A DNA stretch of 42,240 bases from Eubacteriales bacterium (GTDB lineage: Bacteria > Bacillota > Clostridia > Oscillospirales > CAG-272): NCBI GenBank assembly GCA_045586345.1, contig JAZNAD010000024.1, forward strand, positions 1 through 42,240, read 5' to 3'. The notes beneath the pieces are model-generated. The model was not told the DNA's origin and made no database searches. It worked only from the letters and a program-made list of their open reading frames with translations. This document shows positions 12,968-37,626 of the stretch, piece by piece (position 1 is the stretch's first letter; each line of letters opens with the position of its first letter). The translations under genes and the position numbers were made by a program.

Positions 12968-13002
12968 GACTCTTTCCTCCTTTCATTCGTTCTTTTCTTC
13001 TC

Positions 13003-13031
13003 ATTATACCCGAGCAACGGTGAAAGGTCAA
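13003..13031 (-). promoter_or_regulatory. sigmaA promoter of radC
   Basis: TTGACC-17 nt-TATAAT on the minus strand. Confidence 0.65.
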
Positions 13032-13167
13032 GAGAAAACGCACCGGGCTGCAGGCGTGCGCCGAACGCGCGCGAGGTTTTTGGGAATTTTGACGGAAATG
13101 TCTTTACTTTTTTATTAAGCTATGCTATAATTTTTTGGTATGGGATGACACGAGGGAGGGAGAGCGA

Positions 13168-14511
13168 ATGACCAAGCAGCAGAAGGCGGCCGCACACCGT
13201 ACCGTTCTCCTTGTGACCCTCGGCTGTAAGGTCGCGCAGTACGAGACCGAGGCCATCCGCGAGTCCTTCCTTGCGGCGGGCTACCGCGAGGCCGAGAGCG
13301 ACGCCGATGTTGTCATCGCCAACACCTGCACCGTCACGGCCGAGAGCGACCGCAAGTGCCGCCAGGCCATCCGCCGCCTCGCCCGTGAGAATCCGCGGGC
13401 AAGGATCCTTATTTTCGGTTGCTACGCGCAGTCGCATCCCGCCGAGGCGGCCGCCATCTCCGGCGTCTCCTTTGTGGGAGGCACAGCCGGGAAGATGCGT
13501 GCCCTCGCTGTTGCCGAGCGCCTGCTCATAGAGCCGCCCCATCCCGCCGAGATCGCGGTGCGTCCACTGGACGGTGAGGTCTATGAGGCGATGTGCGTGT
13601 CGGGTGCGCCGCGCACCCGCGCTTACGTCAAGATTGCCGACGGCTGTGACTGCCGTTGCACCTACTGTGCCATCCCCGAGGCACGCGGCCCTGTGCGCTC
13701 GCGGCTGCGGGAGGAAATCCTTGAGGAAACCCTGCGGCTTGCGGAGGGCGGGGTACGCGAGGTGGTGCTGACCGGCATCGAGACCGCGTCCTACGGGCGC
13801 GACCGTCACGACGGTTACCGGCTCATTGATCTTTTGGAGGAGGTCGACCGCCTCCCCATCGACCGCATCCGCTTAGGCTCGCTGACGCCCGAGATCCTGC
13901 ACGGCGACTTCGCATCGCGCGCCGCACAGCTCCGGCATTTAGCGCCGCACTTCCATCTTTCGGTGCAAAGCGGCTCCGACCGCGTGCTCGCCGCGATGAA
14001 GCGGCGCTACAACCGCAGGATGATGCTCGAGGGGATCGAGGCGCTCCGCGCGGCCTTCCCCGACCTTCAGCTCACGGCCGATGTGATCGTCGGCTTCCCG
14101 GGAGAAAGCAAAGAAGACTTTGCGCTCAGCATGGATCTTGCCGAGAAAGCGCGTTTCCTTTCGATGCATGTGTTTGCCTTTTCCCCACGGAAGGGCACAG
14201 TGGCTTACAGCCTCCCGGGGGCGATCCCCGAGGATGAGAAGGCCGAGAGAAGCCGCGAGCTCATTGCTCTTTCTGAACGCCTGACGCGGGAGAATCTGGC
14301 CGCCGTCCTTGCCGAGGGAAAGCCGCTCACCGTCCTTTTTGAAACCGAGCGTGACGGTGTTTTCACAGGGCACACCCCCTCCTTCCTTGAGGTGAGTGCG
14401 CCGGCCGCGCGCGATTTGCGTGGGGGGATCCACCGCGTCATACCGACCGCGATATTCGGCGCCCGGCTTATGGGAACCGTCATAGAAGAAATAAAAAATA
14501 CAGACATATAA
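13168..14511 (+). CDS. mtaB: tRNA t6A methylthiotransferase (radical SAM)
   Basis: [17 protein letters not shown]...[30 protein letters not shown]; upstream TGCTATAAT promoter and GGAGG RBS. Confidence 0.92.
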
Positions 14512-14522
14512 GAGAGGTAGTT

Positions 14523-15920
14523 ATGGAAAACACGCAGAAGACCATGGAAAAGATTGTCGGCCTTTGCAAGTCGCGCGGTTTTATCTTCGCCGGCTCCGAG
14601 ATCTACGGCGGTCTTGCCAACTCGTGGGACTTCGGCCCGCTTGGCGTCGAATTCAAGAACAACATCAAGAAGGCTTGGTGGCGCAAGTTCGTCCAGGAAT
14701 CGCGCTACAACGTCGGCCTTGACAGCGCCATCATCGTCAATCCTCAGGTGTGGGTGGCCTCGGGCCACGTCGGCGGCTTCTCCGACCCCCTGATGGACTG
14801 CAAATCCTGTAAGACCCGTCACCGTGCCGATAAGCTGATCGAGGAATACGTGGCCGCCGAGGGGCTTTCGGATAACCCCGCCGGTATGTCGAACGATGAG
14901 ATGGCCACCTACATCCGTGAGCACGGCATCGCCTGCCCCGACTGCGGTAGCCACGACTTCACCGATATCCGCAAGTTCAACCTGATGTTCAAGACCTTCC
15001 AGGGTGTGACCGAGGACGCGACGAGCGAGCTCTACCTCCGCCCCGAGACGGCGCAGGGCCTCTTCGTCAACTTTAAGAACCTCGCCCGTACCACGCGCAA
15101 GAAGCTCCCCTTCGGTATCGGTCAGATCGGCAAGTCCTTCCGCAACGAGATTACGCCCTGAAACTTCATCTTCCGCACCCGCGAGTTCGAGCAGATGGAG
15201 CTTGAGTTCTTCTGCAAGCCCGGCACCGATCTTGAGTGGTTCGCCTACTGGAAGCAGTTCTGCAAGGATTTCCTCCTGAACCTCGGCATGACCGAAGAAA
15301 ACCTGCGTCTGCGTGACCACGACCCTGAGGAGCTTTGCTTCTATTCGAAGGCGACGACCGACTTTGAGTATCTCTTCCCCTTCGGCTGGGGCGAGCTGTG
15401 GGGCATTGCCGACCGTACCGACTACGACCTCGGCCAGCATGCCAAGCATTCGGGCGAAGCGATGGATTACTTTGATCCCGAGACCAACGAGCACTACACC
15501 CCTTACGTCATCGAGCCCTCGCTCGGTGCTGACCGCGTGACGCTCGCCTTCCTTTGCGACGCCTACGACGAGGAGGTCATTGACGCCGAGAAGAACGACG
15601 TCCGTACCGTCCTGCATCTGCATCCCGCGCTCGCGCCGATGAAGGCCGCGGTTCTTCCCCTCTCGAAGAAGCTCACCGAGGACGCTCTGCCGCTGTACGA
15701 CGAGCTCTCGAAGTACTTCGCCGTCGACTTCGACGATGCCGGCTCGATCGGTAAGCGCTACCGCCGCGAGGACGAGATCGGTACGCCCTTCTGCATTACC
15801 TACGACTTCGACTCCAAGGAGGACGGCTGCGTGACCGTGCGCGACCGTGACACGATGGAGCAGGTCCGCATCCCAATCAGCGAGGTGCGCGCCTACATTG
15901 AGGCTCGCATGAACTTCTAA
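14523..15920 (+). CDS. glyQS: Glycine--tRNA ligase, alpha2 type; one 465-codon frame interrupted by an in-frame TGA at 15159-15161
   Basis: ORFs 14523-15161 and 15195-15920 are in the same frame: ...YLRPETAQG...[27 protein letters not shown]...[13 protein letters not shown]...IEPSLGADR...[21 protein letters not shown]. Confidence 0.95.
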
Positions 15921-15949
15921 AGTGGGGCGGCAGATTTCCACATAACCGC

Positions 15950-16030
15950 AAAAGAAAAGAGGTATTTGGTTCTACCAAGTACCTCTTTTTTGTGAACAAA
16001 AAGAGTAGACCGCTGTCTGCTCTTTTACTT
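15950..16030. terminator. Two back-to-back intrinsic terminators (glyQS and the convergent lipoprotein gene)
   Basis: AAAAGAGGTATTTGG-TTCTA-CCAAGTACCTCTTTTTT and AAAAAGAGTAGAC-CGCT-GTCTGCTCTTTT. Confidence 0.8.
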
Positions 16031-16047
16031 TTTCAGTTATGCCCGGA

Positions 16048-16509
16048 TCAAGGATCCAAACCGGGGATAAGGGAGGTTGCCGACTCGATCTTCACAGCCC
16101 ACAGGCGGAGGGTGCCGTCCTCCTTCATGGTGACCGAGAAATCAAAGCGGAGCTCGACCTCGCCCACCGTACCGAAGCCGCCAAGGGCGTAGAGGGGGCC
16201 GTCGGCCGCCTCGTCATGCCAGGAGCTGTACGAGCTCATAAAGGCGTCGATCACAACACCGTCGGCAAAATCGGCACCCGAGGTGTTCTCAAGGGCACGG
16301 ATGTACATTTCAAGATACTCAGCCGAGATCTCGGCCTTTTCGTCAAAGAGGGCGACCGCCTCGGTGTAGCGGCTGTTCACCACATGGGTCAGGAATTCGC
16401 GGAAGATCTCCTTCGCATCGTCATGCTCGATCGAGGAGCAGGAGGTAAGAAGGAAGGATGCCAGAAGGAGCACAAGGAGTGCTAAGGCTGCAAGCCGTGT
16501 TTTTTTCAT
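16048..16509 (-). CDS. Hypothetical lipoprotein
   Basis: MKKTRLAALALLVLLLASFLLTSC lipobox; RBS GGAGG; own TGCTATACT promoter. Confidence 0.75.
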   Translation of the reverse strand: MKKTRLAALALLVLLLASFLLTSCSSIEHDDAKEIFREFLTHVVNSRYTEAVALFDEKAEISAEYLEMYIRALENTSGADFADGVVIDAFMSSYSSWHDEAADGPLYALGGFGTVGEVELRFDFSVTMKEDGTLRLWAVKIESATSLIPGLDP

Positions 16510-16811
16510 AGAAGCCTCCGTCGGTATGTTCGTATTCAGTATAGCACAGGGGCGAGCAAATTGCAAGAGAGCGAGCGGAAATAGAAGAAAGGAGGACTTG
16601 CGTGCCCCTTTCTTGTTTGATAACGACGAACATTACAAGGCTTTAAGAGGGGAGGCGAGCATGGGTATGCTCGCAGCGGCGGAAGCTATTTTTTATCGAG
16701 GCAACCGGCGGTTGACAAATTGAAAGCTCGTCACGGTGGATTTTTTTCTTTTCTTATGCTATACTGGCATTGTTATGGGGGCACCCCCAAAACCAAGGGA
16801 GGACACGATCT

Positions 16812-17798
16812 ATGACCTTAGCCGATAAAATTATAAAGCTCAGAAAACAGGCGGGGTGGTCGCAGGAGGAGCTCGCCGAGCGACTGGGAGTCTCTCGCCA
16901 GGCAGTTTCCAAATGGGAGAGCGCGCAGGCCACACCCGACCTCGACAAGATCCTTTCGCTCAGTACACTCTTCGGTGTAACGACCGACTATCTTCTGAAG
17001 GACGGTGCCGAAGAGGGGGAGATTTCCGCAGCGCTGGAGGGAGTGGCCACCAAGCGCATTTCGCTCGCGGAGGCGACCGCCTACCTTGACGAACGGCGCC
17101 GAGCGGCATGGCACATAGCGATCGCTACCTTCTTATGTATTTTGTCACCGATCACGCTGATCCTCCTCGATGCCCTGGCAAATCCCCCGCACGCCTTAGT
17201 TTCGGAAACCGTGGCGGGGGTCGTGGGGCTCTGTGTCCTGTTCGCCCTTGTACTGTGCGCCGTTCCGCTGTATCTTATCTGCGGCTTCAAAAACGAGCCG
17301 TACGCTTTTCTCGACAAAAGCATACCGTTTGTAGCGGAGCACGGCGTTAGCGAGGCCGTCGCCGCGCGCAAAGAAGAGTTCCGAGGTGCCTATGTCCGAT
17401 GGAATATTATCGCCACCTGTCTTTGCATCCTGTCACCGATCCCTCTGATCGCCACGGCCTTTGCCGACAAGGATCTGCTTTCCGTGCTGATGCTGGCGGT
17501 CATGCTTGTTCTTGCGGGACTTGGAGTCATGGCCTTTATTGTCGTTGGCGTGCAAAACGCCGCTATGCAAAAGCTTCTCCGGGTGGGCGATTATACCGAT
17601 GCCGAAAAGGCGCGGCGGGCTCTGCGCGAGGCAGTCGGCTCTGCCTATTGGGGGATCCTGACCGCGATCTTTCTCGTATGGAGCTTCATGGCGGCGCAGT
17701 GGCATATTTCGTGGACGGTGTTTGCCGTCGGCGGAGTTCTCTTTCCTATCGTGATGCGGATATGCGATGCGATCGCCGATCGGCGCCGCGACCGTTAA
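16812..17798 (+). CDS. XRE-family HTH regulator fused to a multi-pass membrane domain
   Basis: LRKQAGWSQEELAERLGVSRQAVSKWES...PDLDKIL...FGVTTDYLL followed by about 6 TM helices; RBS GGAGG. Confidence 0.9.
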   Translation: MTLADKIIKLRKQAGWSQEELAERLGVSRQAVSKWESAQATPDLDKILSLSTLFGVTTDYLLKDGAEEGEISAALEGVATKRISLAEATAYLDERRRAAWHIAIATFLCILSPITLILLDALANPPHALVSETVAGVVGLCVLFALVLCAVPLYLICGFKNEPYAFLDKSIPFVAEHGVSEAVAARKEEFRGAYVRWNIIATCLCILSPIPLIATAFADKDLLSVLMLAVMLVLAGLGVMAFIVVGVQNAAMQKLLRVGDYTDAEKARRALREAVGSAYWGILTAIFLVWSFMAAQWHISWTVFAVGGVLFPIVMRICDAIADRRRDR

Positions 17799-21495: not shown

Positions 21496-21601
21496 AGCGA
21501 GAGCAGGAAGCGAAGAGAAAAAACATCTTGCATGAGGCAAGGGAGTATGGTATAATGGCCTTGTCTACTATTAGATAAAAGCATCAGAAAAGGAGCACTT
21601 C

Positions 21602-24415
21602 ATGAAGAAAAGGCTTTTATCCCTCGCGCTCTCGGCACTCCTCGTGCTTGGCTGCCTGTCTCCCCTTGCGGTGCCGGCTACGGGTTCCGCGCCCGCTTAT
21701 CCCGAGATCGGCGAGGAGGCATATAACGCCCTGTACGTGCAAGACGGCCTCATCGACGCCTACGACTTCTTCCGTCTGAACGAGTTCTGGTCCGATACGT
21801 GGGCAGACGGTGAGGCTCCCACGCTGCCTCCGGCCCCCGGCCTTGACTCACAATACGATGACAACCGCCTTGATTCGACCGCTCCCTTCATCATCGTTCG
21901 GTACGCGAAGTCAAGTCCGAATACGATCAATAGCTCCTGGGGTCTCGACGCCAACGGAAACAAGGCATGGTACGACGGAAGCTCCGGGCTCGCATACTCC
22001 GAATCGGCTACAGGGACGAAGAAGATCTTCACCTTTACCGATGAGGCGACCGCCCGGGATGTGCTCACCGGCATCGAGGGCAAGAACGAGATTGCTTATA
22101 CTTATGCTGTCATTCGCCAGCCGAAGGTGTCGAGCACCTACAAAACGGCGCGAACGAACTACGCCACCACCGTTGAAAATGACCTCAAGCTTTTCGCACA
22201 CCGCGGTACGGTCGGGATGCAAGTTTATTTGCCCGAGATCTCCCCAATCAGCTATCATGACCAAACCGGTCTGAAGCAGGGCGCCAACGTTTACTACGTT
22301 TCCGCCGATGCGGAGGGCACCGAGCGCGGCGGCTATCTCCAGATGACCAACGCCTTCTCGAGCCAGTCCTACCTGCAGTTTACCGGTCTCCCGACGGCGG
22401 GTACGATCGTCGGCGAGTACGTGATGACGGGTGGCCCTGCGACAACCTCGAGCGGAGCTGACAAAAAGTGTAACTTCCTCACCCTTTCCGAGGTGGTCCT
22501 CTATAAGGAGGGCGATGCGCTCACGCGCTTCGACGGCTACAACGGAGTTAAGTTTACCGGCAAGGGGGATAACGAGGGCTGCACGATCTCGTCGAGCCGC
22601 CTTTACTTAAAGACGAAGGCGATCACCCTGGCCGATCCCAATGCCGTCAATGTCTACGGCATTCACGTCAAACGTGACGGCGGCGATCTTACGGCCGGCC
22701 TGTGGTTCAACGGCAAGGAGATCATTTCGCCCGCTACCGCTACCGATAGCTCAACTACGGGCATCAGAAGCCAGCTTGGCTTCTCCTCTACGACCGAGGC
22801 GCGCGTATACGCGGTGCGCTTCTACGAGCAGGAGCTGGATGCCAACGGCTATGCACAGAATCACTTCGCCGATCTTTGCAAATATTTCCGTCTTGACATC
22901 ACAAGGATGTCCGCTCTGCATGCCAGCGACATCGCGTATCTTGCCGTACGGATGGCCGACTTCAGCTTCACCGATGACCGCGATGCCGTCGCCTCGGCGC
23001 TTGACTCGCACCTTGACTATCTCCTTGAGGACTCGCTCACAGGCAGCGGTGCCTCCCTTGAGATCTTCCTTACCGCCGTCCGAAACGGCGATGTGGACGC
23101 CTCCGCCGTCCGTGCTCTCCCCTCTGCCTATCAGGCCGAGGTCATCACGGCATATGCCGACCTTCTCGAAAAGACCCCTGAGGCCGATACCGCCGAGCGT
23201 CAGAACGCCGTCGACAATGCGGTAGCAACGGTCCTCAGCAGAGAATTTGGCGACTACTATAACAAAACGCCTCTCCTTTTGGCCGAGGATTTCTTTGCCG
23301 AAAAAACACTGTCGGCGGCGGCCGCGCACTTCTTTGAGGTGGCCAAGGCCAACAATATGGATATGAAGCCGCTCGAGGACGTGGATGACACCATCCTTGA
23401 ATACCTTTACCTCGACTTTGCCGACGTCATTCCGTCCCTCCCCTCGCTGACCGCGGTCCTTCAGAAGCGGATGATCGATGCGCTGGTTCTGTACCGCGAG
23501 CTTTATTACGGTGTGTCGGTCGTTGAAGGACTTCTCTCCTTCTACGGCTACCAGCTGACAATGCACGGTGATACCGGCGTGCGCGCCGTCTACACCGTCA
23601 ACCCCGACGTTCTTGCCGACCTTGAGTCTCACGGCTTCACCGTCCACTTCGGTGCGATCTTCACCACCGAGTCGGAGGAGCCCACCGTGAAGCGCGAGGG
23701 GAATGCCTACGTTCCCGCGACGAGTGATGTCAAGCAGGAGGCCGTCTACAAGACTGGCGTCGGCTACTCCGGCAACCACTTCACGCTCGGCGGCAAGACC
23801 GCCTTTGCCTACGAGCATATGTCGGAAAACGTACAGGAATCGCTTCGGTTCGTGGCCTACGCCGTCCTTGAGCGTACCGGTCAGGAGCCCTCCATTCACT
23901 ATTTCACCCCCAAGGGTGAGACCATCAAGACCGCATCGGTCACGCTGAATACCCTTGCAAGAGCCTGCCGCGATACCGTCGGTACCGTGTACCCGAACGT
24001 ACAGAAGATCCTCGTCCGCCGCGGCGCTACCGAGGCCAGCCCCTCGGTCTATCTCGGCTCCCTGAACCTGACCGAGCAGCGCCCTGTGATGGATAACGAG
24101 CACAGAACGATGGTCAAGAGCTTCCAGGCATCGATCCGGGCGTACACTCAAGCTCCCTCTGCAATGCCCGAGATCTCGATTGCCGATGCCACCGGGACAA
24201 AGCTCATCCGCTTTGAGACCGGAGATGCCGTCTCCTTCAAGCAGGCCGATGACGGCTCGCTGGTCTTTACCTACGTGAAGGATAAGGAGGACGCGGCCAT
24301 CGCACTCCTTGAGGCCGAGCTTGAAAGAACGAAGGAAAACCTCTATGCGACCGGTACCCCCGCGCTTCCCACTGCATTCCTTGTCCTCGGCGAAATCAAA
24401 GAACCCAAGAAATAA
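21602..24415 (+). CDS. Large secreted/surface protein of unknown function (possible LamG/concanavalin-like module)
   Basis: Signal peptide MKKRLLSLAL...; RBS AAGGAG; promoter TTGCAT-17-TATAAT at 21528-21556; VYAVRFYEQEL...QNH resembles the end of a LamG-like domain. Confidence 0.8.
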   Translation: MKKRLLSLALSALLVLGCLSPLAVPATGSAPAYPEIGEEAYNALYVQDGLIDAYDFFRLNEFWSDTWADGEAPTLPPAPGLDSQYDDNRLDSTAPFIIVRYAKSSPNTINSSWGLDANGNKAWYDGSSGLAYSESATGTKKIFTFTDEATARDVLTGIEGKNEIAYTYAVIRQPKVSSTYKTARTNYATTVENDLKLFAHRGTVGMQVYLPEISPISYHDQTGLKQGANVYYVSADAEGTERGGYLQMTNAFSSQSYLQFTGLPTAGTIVGEYVMTGGPATTSSGADKKCNFLTLSEVVLYKEGDALTRFDGYNGVKFTGKGDNEGCTISSSRLYLKTKAITLADPNAVNVYGIHVKRDGGDLTAGLWFNGKEIISPATATDSSTTGIRSQLGFSSTTEARVYAVRFYEQELDANGYAQNHFADLCKYFRLDITRMSALHASDIAYLAVRMADFSFTDDRDAVASALDSHLDYLLEDSLTGSGASLEIFLTAVRNGDVDASAVRALPSAYQAEVITAYADLLEKTPEADTAERQNAVDNAVATVLSREFGDYYNKTPLLLAEDFFAEKTLSAAAAHFFEVAKANNMDMKPLEDVDDTILEYLYLDFADVIPSLPSLTAVLQKRMIDALVLYRELYYGVSVVEGLLSFYGYQLTMHGDTGVRAVYTVNPDVLADLESHGFTVHFGAIFTTESEEPTVKREGNAYVPATSDVKQEAVYKTGVGYSGNHFTLGGKTAFAYEHMSENVQESLRFVAYAVLERTGQEPSIHYFTPKGETIKTASVTLNTLARACRDTVGTVYPNVQKILVRRGATEASPSVYLGSLNLTEQRPVMDNEHRTMVKSFQASIRAYTQAPSAMPEISIADATGTKLIRFETGDAVSFKQADDGSLVFTYVKDKEDAAIALLEAELERTKENLYATGTPALPTAFLVLGEIKEPKK

Positions 24416-28790: not shown

Positions 28791-28908
28791 TTTTTTGTGG
28801 CAGAATTGTCTTTGGCAATTCTGCCACTTTATTTTGGGGGATGCCTGCACATAAACGCCCTTTGCCGCGTACAAATTAAAGGGGAAAGCATGAAAGGCGG
28901 CACAAGGC

Positions 28909-30120
28909 ATGAAACAATTGAAACAACTTATTTCCGACGTCTCCTTCCTTCTTCTCCTCGCGTTGGTACTTATCGCGGGAGTGATGGGGATCGCCGATTT
29001 TACTATCCCCGACTCACTCTCGGTCTTGCGCGGCGAGGATCCGTCGGTCTCGGGGCTCGTCTCGTTTTCGAAGGAGCAGGAGGTCACTCTCGGTGAACAC
29101 GCCACGCGGGCCAATGCTACGGCGCGGCTTTTTGGGATCCTCCCCTTAAAGGAGGTCGAAATCACGACCTTCGATACGCTGGCACTCTGCCCTGGCGGCG
29201 ATGTATTCGGCATCCGCGTTTTCCTCGGTGGGGCGATGGTTACGTCGCTCACCAAGGTTACCGACGCCGACGGCAACGAACGGTGCCCGGCTCGCGAGGC
29301 GGGGCTGACACCCGGCGATCTCATTACGGCAGTGGACGGCAAAGCGATCCGCGATGCCGCCTCCCTCTCGTCAAGCATCGCGGCCTCGCAGGGGCACGCG
29401 CTAACACTCACCGTCCTGCGCGGCGAGCGCACGCTCACCCTTCGTCTTACACCGCGCTATTCGGCCTCTGCGGGGGCATATCGCGCAGGGATCTTAGTCA
29501 AGGATCAGGCAGCAGGGATCGGGACGATGACCTTCATTGACCCGAGGACCGGAGCTTTTGGAGGGCTCGGGCACGGCATCTACGACACCGAGAGCGCGGC
29601 AATTTTACCCGTCGAGCGTGGCGTGGTAAGCGACGTCAGGCTCTCGGGGGTGATCGCGGGGGCCCCGGGGGACCCCGGAGAGCTGCGCGGACAGCTTGGC
29701 GAGAAGCGACGCGGCACCCTGCTCTCAAATACCGAATGCGGCGTCTTCGGTGTGCTCGGCGACACGGCGGGGCTCCATGAGGCCATTCCGATCGGGCTTG
29801 CCTCCTCAGTGCACGTCGGGAGGGCCGAGATCCTTTGCACGCTAAAGGACGGTGAATGCCGCCCGTATGATATTGAGATCACCGAGCTCCGTGACCGACG
29901 CACGACCACGAAATGCTTCACCATCCGGGTGACCGACCCCGACCTCATCGAGGTGACAGGTGGCATCGTGCAGGGAATGAGCGGCTCGCCCATCATCCAG
30001 GACGGCAGACTTATCGGTGCTGTGACGCACGTGATGATCAACGATCCGACCTGCGGCTATGGCATATTTATCGAGAATATGTTAGCGGCGGCCGAGGACA
30101 GTGTCCAAAAGGCGGCGTGA
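28909..30120 (+). CDS. spoIVB: Stage IV sporulation protein B peptidase (S55, PDZ)
   Basis: LFGILPLK, PDZ domain, DQAAGIGTMTF, GLGHGI, TGGIVQGMSGSPIIQDGRLIGAVTHV. Confidence 0.96.
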   Translation: MKQLKQLISDVSFLLLLALVLIAGVMGIADFTIPDSLSVLRGEDPSVSGLVSFSKEQEVTLGEHATRANATARLFGILPLKEVEITTFDTLALCPGGDVFGIRVFLGGAMVTSLTKVTDADGNERCPAREAGLTPGDLITAVDGKAIRDAASLSSSIAASQGHALTLTVLRGERTLTLRLTPRYSASAGAYRAGILVKDQAAGIGTMTFIDPRTGAFGGLGHGIYDTESAAILPVERGVVSDVRLSGVIAGAPGDPGELRGQLGEKRRGTLLSNTECGVFGVLGDTAGLHEAIPIGLASSVHVGRAEILCTLKDGECRPYDIEITELRDRRTTTKCFTIRVTDPDLIEVTGGIVQGMSGSPIIQDGRLIGAVTHVMINDPTCGYGIFIENMLAAAEDSVQKAA

Positions 30121-35871: not shown

Positions 35872-35883
35872 AGGAGACATACG

Positions 35884-37626
35884 ATGAACGAAAAGAGAAT
35901 TATGCTCGGCAACGACGCCATCGCGCGCGGTGCCTACGAGGCGGGAGTCAAGCTCTCGAGTGCCTACCCCGGCACCCCCAGCACCGAGATCAGCGAGGCG
36001 CTCGCGGGATATGCCGAGGTCTATACCGAATGGGCCCCCAACGAAAAGGTCGCGCTCGAGGTAGCCGCCGGCGCCTCGATCTCGGGGGTGCGCGCGCTTG
36101 CCTGCATGAAGCACGTCGGCCTGAATGTGGCGAGCGACCCGCTCTACACCCTCTCCTACACGGGGGTGGGCGGCGGCCTTGTCATTGTGGTAGCGGACGA
36201 CCCCGGCCTCGCCAGCTCGCAGAACGAGCAGGACACGCGCATGATCGGCCGCAGCTCGCACATCCCGGTCATTGAACCCTCCGACAGCCAGGAGGCCAAG
36301 GACTACCTGAAGCTCGCCTACGAGATCAGCGAGGAATACGATACCCCCGTCATCCTCAGGACCACGACAAAGCTCGCGCACTCGCAGAGCGTTGTCGAGC
36401 TCGAGGAGCGGAGTGTCCCCGAGGATAAGGTCTACGAGAGAAACGTGGCGAAGTACGTCATGATGCCCGGCTCGGCCATCGGTCGCCACCGCGTGGTGGA
36501 GGCGCGCGAGGATCGCCTCGCCGAGGATGCCTCCTCCCTCGCCATCAACCGCGCCGAATACGGCGACCGCCGCCTGGGCTTTATCACCTCGGGCATTGCC
36601 TATCAGTACGTCAAGGAGGCCGCCCCGACGGCGAGCGTCCTGAAGCTCGGCATGGTGCATCCCCTGCCCCGCCGCCTCATTGAGGAATTTGTCGCCGCTT
36701 GTGACGAGGTCTACATCTTCGAGGAGCTTGAGCCCGTCATCGAGGAGCAGGTCAAGAGCTGGGGGCTTTCGGTCAATGGTAAAGAATACTTTACGAAGCA
36801 GGGCGAGTACAGCGCGAACATGCTGAAGGCTGTGCTTACGGGGAAGGCGCCCGAGATCGCGGCCAAGGCCGACGTGCCCGCGCGCCCGCCGATCCTCTGC
36901 CCCGGCTGCCCGCACCGCAGCGTCTTCTCGGTGCTGAACAAGCTGAAGATCCACGCGGCCGGCGACATCGGGTGCTACACCCTCGGCGCCGTGGCCCCCC
37001 TCAGCGTCATCGACACGACCGTGTGCATGGGCTCGAGCATCTCGATCCTGCACGGCATGGAGAAGGCCAAGGGCAAGGATTACGTCAAGAACTGGGTGGC
37101 GACCATCGGTGACTCCACCTTCCTGCATACAGGCATCAACTCGCTGATCGGTATGGTCTACAACAAATCGACGGCGACCGTGATGATCCTTGACAACCGC
37201 ACGACGGGTATGACGGGGCATCAGGAGCATGCTGCCACGGGCAAGACCCTAAAGGGCGAGGACACCTATGCGATCGACCTTGCCGAGCTTTGCCGCGCTG
37301 TCGGTGTGCCGAACGTCATTACGGTCAACGCCTTTGACGTTGCCGCGCTTGAGACCACCATCCGCGAGAGCGTGGCGAGCGACGTCCTGACCGTTATCAT
37401 CGCGAAGGCACCCTGCGCGCTCCTGAAGGGACAGAAATTCCCGAACGTGTGCGTTGTGGATAGCGAAAAGTGCAAGAAGTGCGGTGCCTGCCTGAAGATC
37501 GGCTGCCCCGCCCTCACCAAGACCGAGGACGGCACGGTCAGGATCGACGATGCGATGTGCAACGGCTGCGGCCTTTGCATGAGCCGCTGTAAGTTCGGTG
37601 CCATCACCTCGGTACCGAAGGCCTGA
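35884..37626 (+). CDS. iorA: Indolepyruvate:ferredoxin oxidoreductase alpha subunit
   Basis: AYPGTPSTEI, MKHVGLNVA, SSQNEQD, LCPGCPHR, GDIGCY, IGDSTFLH, two C-terminal 4Fe-4S motifs. Confidence 0.96.
   Translation: MNEKRIMLGNDAIARGAYEAGVKLSSAYPGTPSTEISEALAGYAEVYTEWAPNEKVALEVAAGASISGVRALACMKHVGLNVASDPLYTLSYTGVGGGLVIVVADDPGLASSQNEQDTRMIGRSSHIPVIEPSDSQEAKDYLKLAYEISEEYDTPVILRTTTKLAHSQSVVELEERSVPEDKVYERNVAKYVMMPGSAIGRHRVVEAREDRLAEDASSLAINRAEYGDRRLGFITSGIAYQYVKEAAPTASVLKLGMVHPLPRRLIEEFVAACDEVYIFEELEPVIEEQVKSWGLSVNGKEYFTKQGEYSANMLKAVLTGKAPEIAAKADVPARPPILCPGCPHRSVFSVLNKLKIHAAGDIGCYTLGAVAPLSVIDTTVCMGSSISILHGMEKAKGKDYVKNWVATIGDSTFLHTGINSLIGMVYNKSTATVMILDNRTTGMTGHQEHAATGKTLKGEDTYAIDLAELCRAVGVPNVITVNAFDVAALETTIRESVASDVLTVIIAKAPCALLKGQKFPNVCVVDSEKCKKCGACLKIGCPALTKTEDGTVRIDDAMCNGCGLCMSRCKFGAITSVPKA

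Follow-up and report, generated by a model that had tools for sequence, protein, structure and literature searches.

Dimeric (alpha2, 'glyQS'-type) glycine--tRNA ligases (GlyRS) are well covered by protein profiles, and a reading of UGA as glycine has also been described. According to the available part of a 2026 paper, UGA means Gly in genetic code 25, which is found in the Absconditabacteria/Gracilibacteria, class JAEDAM01 (PMC13092985). The same part of this source deals with suppressor tRNAs of standard-code bacteria, which decode stops that arose as nonsense mutations, and with tRNA-Trp variants that read UGA by means of a 4-bp anticodon stem or the change G24A. On that description, nonsense suppression by tRNA-Trp or by a suppressor tRNA is a known way to tolerate a real in-frame UGA (PMC13092985). 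A full-text literature search listed no report of a bacterial GlyRS interrupted by an in-frame stop, which does not prove that none has been printed. The gene described here carries such a stop. It is like the dimeric GlyRS in its full-length profile match, its class II core and its anticodon-binding domain, and unlike it in that the motif-2 loop has a TGA in place of its Gly. It is like code 25 in that this UGA stands at an expected Gly; unlike the code-25 organisms, its host is a Clostridia member of 58% G+C which, set against the available description, has RF2, ends 43% of its long ORFs in TGA, contains one such case in the genome and yielded no tRNA-Gly(UCA). This TGA is probably not a biological feature, the favoured explanation being an ordinary GlyRS whose consensus contains an error or records a rare variant that is not viable.

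The window, i.e., the whole stretch of DNA analysed (42,240 nucleotides), is the entire 42-kb contig C24 of a metagenome-assembled genome (MAG), here called G000, which comprises 1,509,030 bases in 147 contigs, with 58.3% G+C, a completeness of 86.67% and a contamination of 3.18%. The GlyRS gene occupies positions 14523..15920 of the forward strand and consists of 465 codons and a TAA. As the sequence-only reading had reported, codon 213 of this frame (15159..15161, forward strand) is a TGA, in the context ACG CCC TGA AAC, at a residue of the motif-2 loop that is Gly in every relative examined. Under table 11 the frame is translated as two ORFs, 14523-15161 (212 residues) and 15195-15920 (241 residues), while read-through gives 465 residues with X at 213. 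The read-through protein scores 683.8 bits against the glycine--tRNA ligase equivalog NF003211 (cut-off 312), covering profile positions 1-454 of 454, and 541 bits against TIGR00389 (cut-off 243.3). Pfam recognizes the class II core tRNA-synt_2b (PF00587) and HGTP_anticodon (PF03129), and the closest solved chain is 8sld_A (508.8 bits), to which the motif-2 stretch is identical apart from the stop. The TGA is the point at which the gene departs from the uninterrupted frame of a dimeric GlyRS. The glycine codons of the gene are GGC (21), GGT (10) and GGG (1), with no GGA, in agreement with what had been noticed before. That the two fragments form a functional split enzyme is rejected, as M225 is the only start open to the second one, and residues 213-224 of motif 2 would be lost. 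Long antisense frames are typical of G+C-rich coding DNA, and one of 578 codons (window 14205-15941, reverse strand) spans the whole of GlyRS; its codon bias says that it is not a gene.

Upstream of GlyRS lies a radical-SAM methylthiotransferase gene of the mtaB type (13135..14511, forward strand; Pfam Radical_SAM and UPF0004). Because GlyRS begins only 11 nt behind it, the two genes probably form one operon. A promoter-like site at 13103-13131, before the mtaB-like gene, and a terminator-like site at 15999-16026, after GlyRS, are consensus matches only. No Rfam family, T-box included, matched positions 13000-17000 at E <= 1; both the short spacing and the missing T-box leader of the sequence-only reading hold, and the locus is in this respect unlike T-box-regulated glyQS genes, having no leader matched in the scanned region and an 11-nt gap only. 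Elsewhere in the window, a 946-residue ORF (21575-24412, forward strand) shows good codon bias and has no Pfam match at E <= 1e-5.

The stop is not shared. GlyRS was found in 40 of 41 genomes (G000 and 40 relatives), with an internal stop in G000 alone. Codon 213 is a Gly codon in all 29 relatives' loci compared (GGC in 13, GGT in 12, GGA in 4) and, once six more loci are added, in 35 of 35 at the DNA level, these relatives being other species and G000 the sole genome of its own species in the comparison. The six closest relatives, with nucleotide identities over the gene of 93.1, 91.2, 89.3, 88.3, 87.6, and 83.6%, all have GGC, so the TGA needs both a G>T and a C>A change, unless the species itself has GGA. 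The first base of the TGA, T, is private to this contig, since all 35 relatives have G. At the protein level, G213 is present in all ten proteins of a large collection that share 94-98% identity, and a single contig, the window's own, is recorded with exactly the 212-residue fragment. A genus-wide search gave a GlyRS match in 203 of 213 genomes, and no stop at codon 213 of another genome was seen among the 150 matches listed, 83 further matches existing. The recurrence that the sequence-only reading had proposed to look for is absent (0/35 loci, 0/10 near-identical proteins), and its suggestion that gene-specific UGA read-through controls GlyRS is refuted, by the criterion which that reading had itself set, because all close relatives have a sense codon.

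The history of the gene can be followed by comparison with a sister species, G024 (687,703 bases), whose 536 non-overlapping ORFs were aligned to G000; 460 of them had a hit, and these hits cover 153,007 aligned residues with a median identity of 77.8%. Between the two GlyRS genes there are 128 synonymous and 19 non-synonymous codon differences. Both halves behave alike, with synonymous to non-synonymous ratios of 49:8 before the stop and 79:11 after it, and the G000 branch carries seven derived residues, the G024 branch 12. Judging from these substitutions, the gene has been under purifying selection until very recently, and the stop is either very young or not real. The sequence-only reading had also envisaged a second GlyRS rescuing a nonsense allele; neither glyQ, glyS nor a second dimeric GlyRS was found in the 86.67%-complete G000, and the gene shows no relaxed selection. 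Elsewhere in the alignment, at most three frameshift candidates were noted in the 460 ORFs. One of them is at C67:6079-6820 of G000, where a 244-residue ORF of G024 aligns as two neighbouring segments that differ in frame (residues 1-68 and 67-244).

The way in which UGA is read in this genome was examined at several levels. RF2 is encoded by a prfB gene (C52:21832-22887, reverse strand, locus L031) of 376 codons, matching positions 3-353 of the RF2 model with 490.9 bits vs a cut-off of 370. A programmed +1 frameshift site is common in bacterial RF2 genes; the one of G000 seems to lack it, because prfB is a single open frame without internal stop. Among 1064 model-chosen ORFs of at least 150 codons, 455 end in TGA (43%), 539 in TAA and 70 in TAG. 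Within the window, TGA ends 10 of the 28 model-chosen ORFs, including galK (591-1952), SpoIVB (28894-30120) and an IorA-like gene (35872-37626), which confirms the earlier remark that TGA is a normal terminator in these three genes. A coding-like continuation in frame is no commoner after TGA (46/455) than after TAA (91/539), although a scan of this kind, based on codon bias, is confounded by same-frame neighbour genes and by the antisense frames of a G+C-rich genome. Inspection by eye of the 56 TGAs that have coding-like flanks left only that of GlyRS inside a real gene; the rest had the look of antisense frames or were followed closely by a ribosome-binding site and an ATG. The alignment to G024 gives the same picture. 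Its best alignments contain 89 stop characters, and the GlyRS TGA is the only one with fully conserved flanks (20/20 on each side) in a convincing gene among the 460 ORFs; the other 88, by eye, precede starts, stand at alignment ends or belong to short doubtful ORFs, such as L069_-0_5239 (130 residues, flanks 18/20 and 14/20) and L038_+2_1082 (157 residues). The intact RF2, the 455 of 1064 ORFs that end in TGA and the single internal TGA in 460 ORFs bear out the view, already taken in the sequence-only reading, that there is no genome-wide reassignment.

Decoding factors for UGA were sought as well. In the MAG, 86.67% complete, ARAGORN reported 41 tRNAs, and a UCA anticodon occurs in none of them. 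In the tRNA-Trp(CCA), at C39:2349-2424, the anticodon stem is 5 bp long (GCGGU/ACCGC) and C11 pairs with G24; owing to this 5-bp stem and G24, this tRNA carries neither of the UGA-reading changes known from the available part of the source cited above. With this tRNA-Trp, and with no suppressor tRNA found, G000 is unlike the nonsense-suppressing bacteria described there. The marks of a bacterial selenoprotein are likewise missing: the best selB hit reaches 96.8 bits vs a cut-off of 242.25, the best tRNA-Sec hits (40.2 vs a gathering score of 47 bits) fall on ordinary tRNAs, and the hairpin that would have to serve as SECIS element has a folding z of 0.06 and no Rfam match. The supports for recoding that had been proposed as checks, i.e., a tRNA with UCA anticodon, selB or an altered prfB, were therefore not found, prfB being intact. 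Another candidate, +1 frameshifting at CCC_UGA, was discarded, as the downstream sequence is conserved in the zero frame. ARAGORN also called a 97-nt 'tRNA-Asn(att)' at C47:26278-26374 of G000, whose length and anticodon are odd; it is perhaps a false call or a tRNA-like element.

The codon is not the only private position of this gene. Two first-position transversions, 15060 A>C (I180L) and 15081 G>C (V187L), lie on the forward strand 78-99 nt upstream of the TGA; neither state is present in any of the 35 relatives, and I180 and V187 are the residues of the proteins that share 94-98% identity. Over the compared region these two and 15159 G>T are the only nucleotide states private to G000; all three are first-position transversions within 100 nt, which is a hint of an artefact. 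Three of the four residues private to G000 fall within 34 codons (a rough scan statistic gives p of about 0.06), and a non-random clustering is suggestive only. Stops were also encountered in the GlyRS of two congeners. The gene of G059 (L109, G059:C33:218-2606) has a TAG at codon 228 in G000 numbering (E228; EQMEL*FFCKPV) and a private G234V six codons after it, and that of G073 (L108, G073:C29:28008-30396) has a TAG at codon 258 (LGMK*ENL). In G000, G059 and G073 alike, the stop is a G>T at codon position 1. That these stops occupy different codons in different MAGs suggests noise rather than a conserved signal, and within the genus they look like sporadic consensus errors or transient variants. 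In all, three internal stops of GlyRS were verified among the 150 matches listed. As a control, PheT was searched in the same 213 genomes and gave 12 flagged stops among 150 matches listed, none truly internal: six are at query positions 2-3, before the true Met (the query began four residues early), and the other six fall outside the tblastn alignment. For EF-Tu, at most one flagged stop (a TAG in G105) was seen among the matches listed from 133 genomes, many of which are cut at contig ends. The excess in GlyRS (3/150 vs no more than one in about 290) does not reach significance; as far as it goes, it counts against an error. In these MAGs, single in-frame stops in essential genes thus amount to roughly 1 per 100 gene copies, at non-recurrent positions. 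EF-Tu itself has no match in G000 at E <= 1e-100 and is cut at contig ends in many congeners, and such breaks illustrate how highly conserved genes break these assemblies.

Several explanations in which the stop is real have to be weighed against an error. The one that deserves most attention, unlikely as it is, holds that the TGA is a recent nonsense allele of a viable strain, kept alive without any programming by leaky read-through by the near-cognate tRNA-Trp(CCA) at Pro-UGA-A, by a suppressor tRNA or by a second GlyRS in the ~13% of the genome that was not assembled. Of the three stops, UGA leaks most, and termination is slower after a C-terminal Pro. The contig is long and the MAG otherwise clean against its sister species, the three linked private changes may belong to one true haplotype, and a genome 86.67% complete that lacks several expected genes, such as EF-Tu at E <= 1e-100, could also lack the rescuing one. 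Against it, no UCA anticodon is present among the 41 tRNAs, the tRNA-Trp has neither the 4-bp anticodon stem nor A24, and glyQ, glyS and a second dimeric GlyRS were not found in G000; besides, the allele is known on one contig only, and a Trp in place of the motif-2 Gly, which is found in 35 of 35 relatives and in 8sld_A, may leave the enzyme inactive. In its favour, suppressor tRNAs are reported in 0.3% of standard-code bacterial genomes in the available part of the source (PMC13092985). A stronger version, that the TGA is real and fixed in the species, that full-length GlyRS arises only by read-through at Pro-UGA-A and that, with G059 and G073, the genus tolerates or exploits nonsense codons in the region of codons 213-258, is very improbable; if it were true, the amount of this sole GlyRS would depend on termination efficiency. 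A stop that is both real and read through would, in any case, make this a rare example of an essential aminoacyl-tRNA synthetase dependent on stop suppression in a standard-code bacterium.

Even less credit can be given to a programmed, gene-specific read-through that inserts Gly or Trp and tunes GlyRS synthesis with the help of a 3' stem. What invites it is that the enzyme concerned is the one that charges tRNA-Gly and the stop coincides exactly with one of its own Gly codons, that both halves of the gene are under purifying selection, and that without a T-box leader another mode of control is conceivable. The 8-bp stem invoked by the sequence-only reading exists as letters (CTTCATCT / AGATGGAG, 15164..15200, forward strand, 8/8 pairs) and fails as a signal. 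The 66-nt region that contains it has a minimum free energy of -13.4 kcal/mol vs a shuffle mean of -13.57 (z = 0.06), 93 of 200 shuffles folding as well or better, and arms with 8/8 pairs occur in 16 of the 35 relatives that have a Gly codon (at least seven pairs in 27/35); the stem simply follows from the conserved codons for NFIF...QME and carries no signal. Furthermore, none of the 35 relatives has the stop, including the one that is 93% identical in nucleotides, no recoding factor was found (UCA tRNA, tRNA-Trp changes, selB, tRNA-Sec), and selection measured over the divergence of species is silent on the time since a very recent change. As for UGA being reassigned throughout the genome, to Gly (code 25) or Trp (code 4), or read as selenocysteine, the first is suggested by the existence of a code in which UGA is Gly and by the Gly expected at this position. 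All of these are excluded: G000 has an intact RF2, TGA ends 455 of 1064 long ORFs, coding continuation after it (46/455) is not commoner than after TAA (91/539), a single internal TGA occurs in 153,007 aligned residues, and no UCA-anticodon tRNA was found, nor a selB or tRNA-Sec above threshold.

An error of the consensus, or else a rare variant that is not viable, in an ordinary GlyRS therefore remains the favoured explanation, and the stop of G000 resembles other sporadic stops of MAG consensus sequences in being private and non-recurrent (codons 213, 228, and 258 in three genomes, all G>T), these being presumed errors. Either an error of sequencing or assembly, G>T alone or together with C>A, would have been fixed into the contig, or the assembler would have happened to follow such a rare variant. 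The stretch around the stop is among the most conserved of the gene at the nucleotide level, and co-occurring congeners would pile up coverage there. Common assemblers apply abundance filters that usually drop single-read errors, a point against an error; in such a stretch, error k-mers may pass these filters and then be threaded into a genome of low coverage. No read-through device would be in play. A consensus error had been one of the options of the sequence-only reading, and it stands as the best fit to a private, non-recurrent stop, not as a proven cause. Some observations count against an error: the contig is long, and G000 is otherwise clean against G024, with one internal stop and at most three frameshift candidates. 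Two base changes from GGC are also less likely as one random error. The private changes, three of them linked over 100 nt, might just as well mark a real haplotype. The practical lesson is that such stops should be compared with relatives and with reads before recoding is called.

Public sequencing runs give a further view of position 15159. This organism was not found in them, the best share of sampled words being 0.12. Contigs of its relatives that cover the position read G in four runs, with 226.7 of 226.7, 269.2 of 269.2, 1111 of 1114.2 and 786.5 of 786.5 depth units, respectively. In one of these runs, X6, about 3 of the 1114 depth units are not G, and a piece of 151 nt in the same run matches window positions 15817-15967 without a difference; together, these two observations are a weak hint that a T-bearing molecule may exist outside the source sample. 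Along the relatives' contigs, the bins at 15155-15268 are the deepest of all in runs X1 and X3 and belong to the deepest in X6 and X7, and the three GlyRS stops (codons 213, 228, and 258) lie in, or adjoin, this stretch of peak pile-up.
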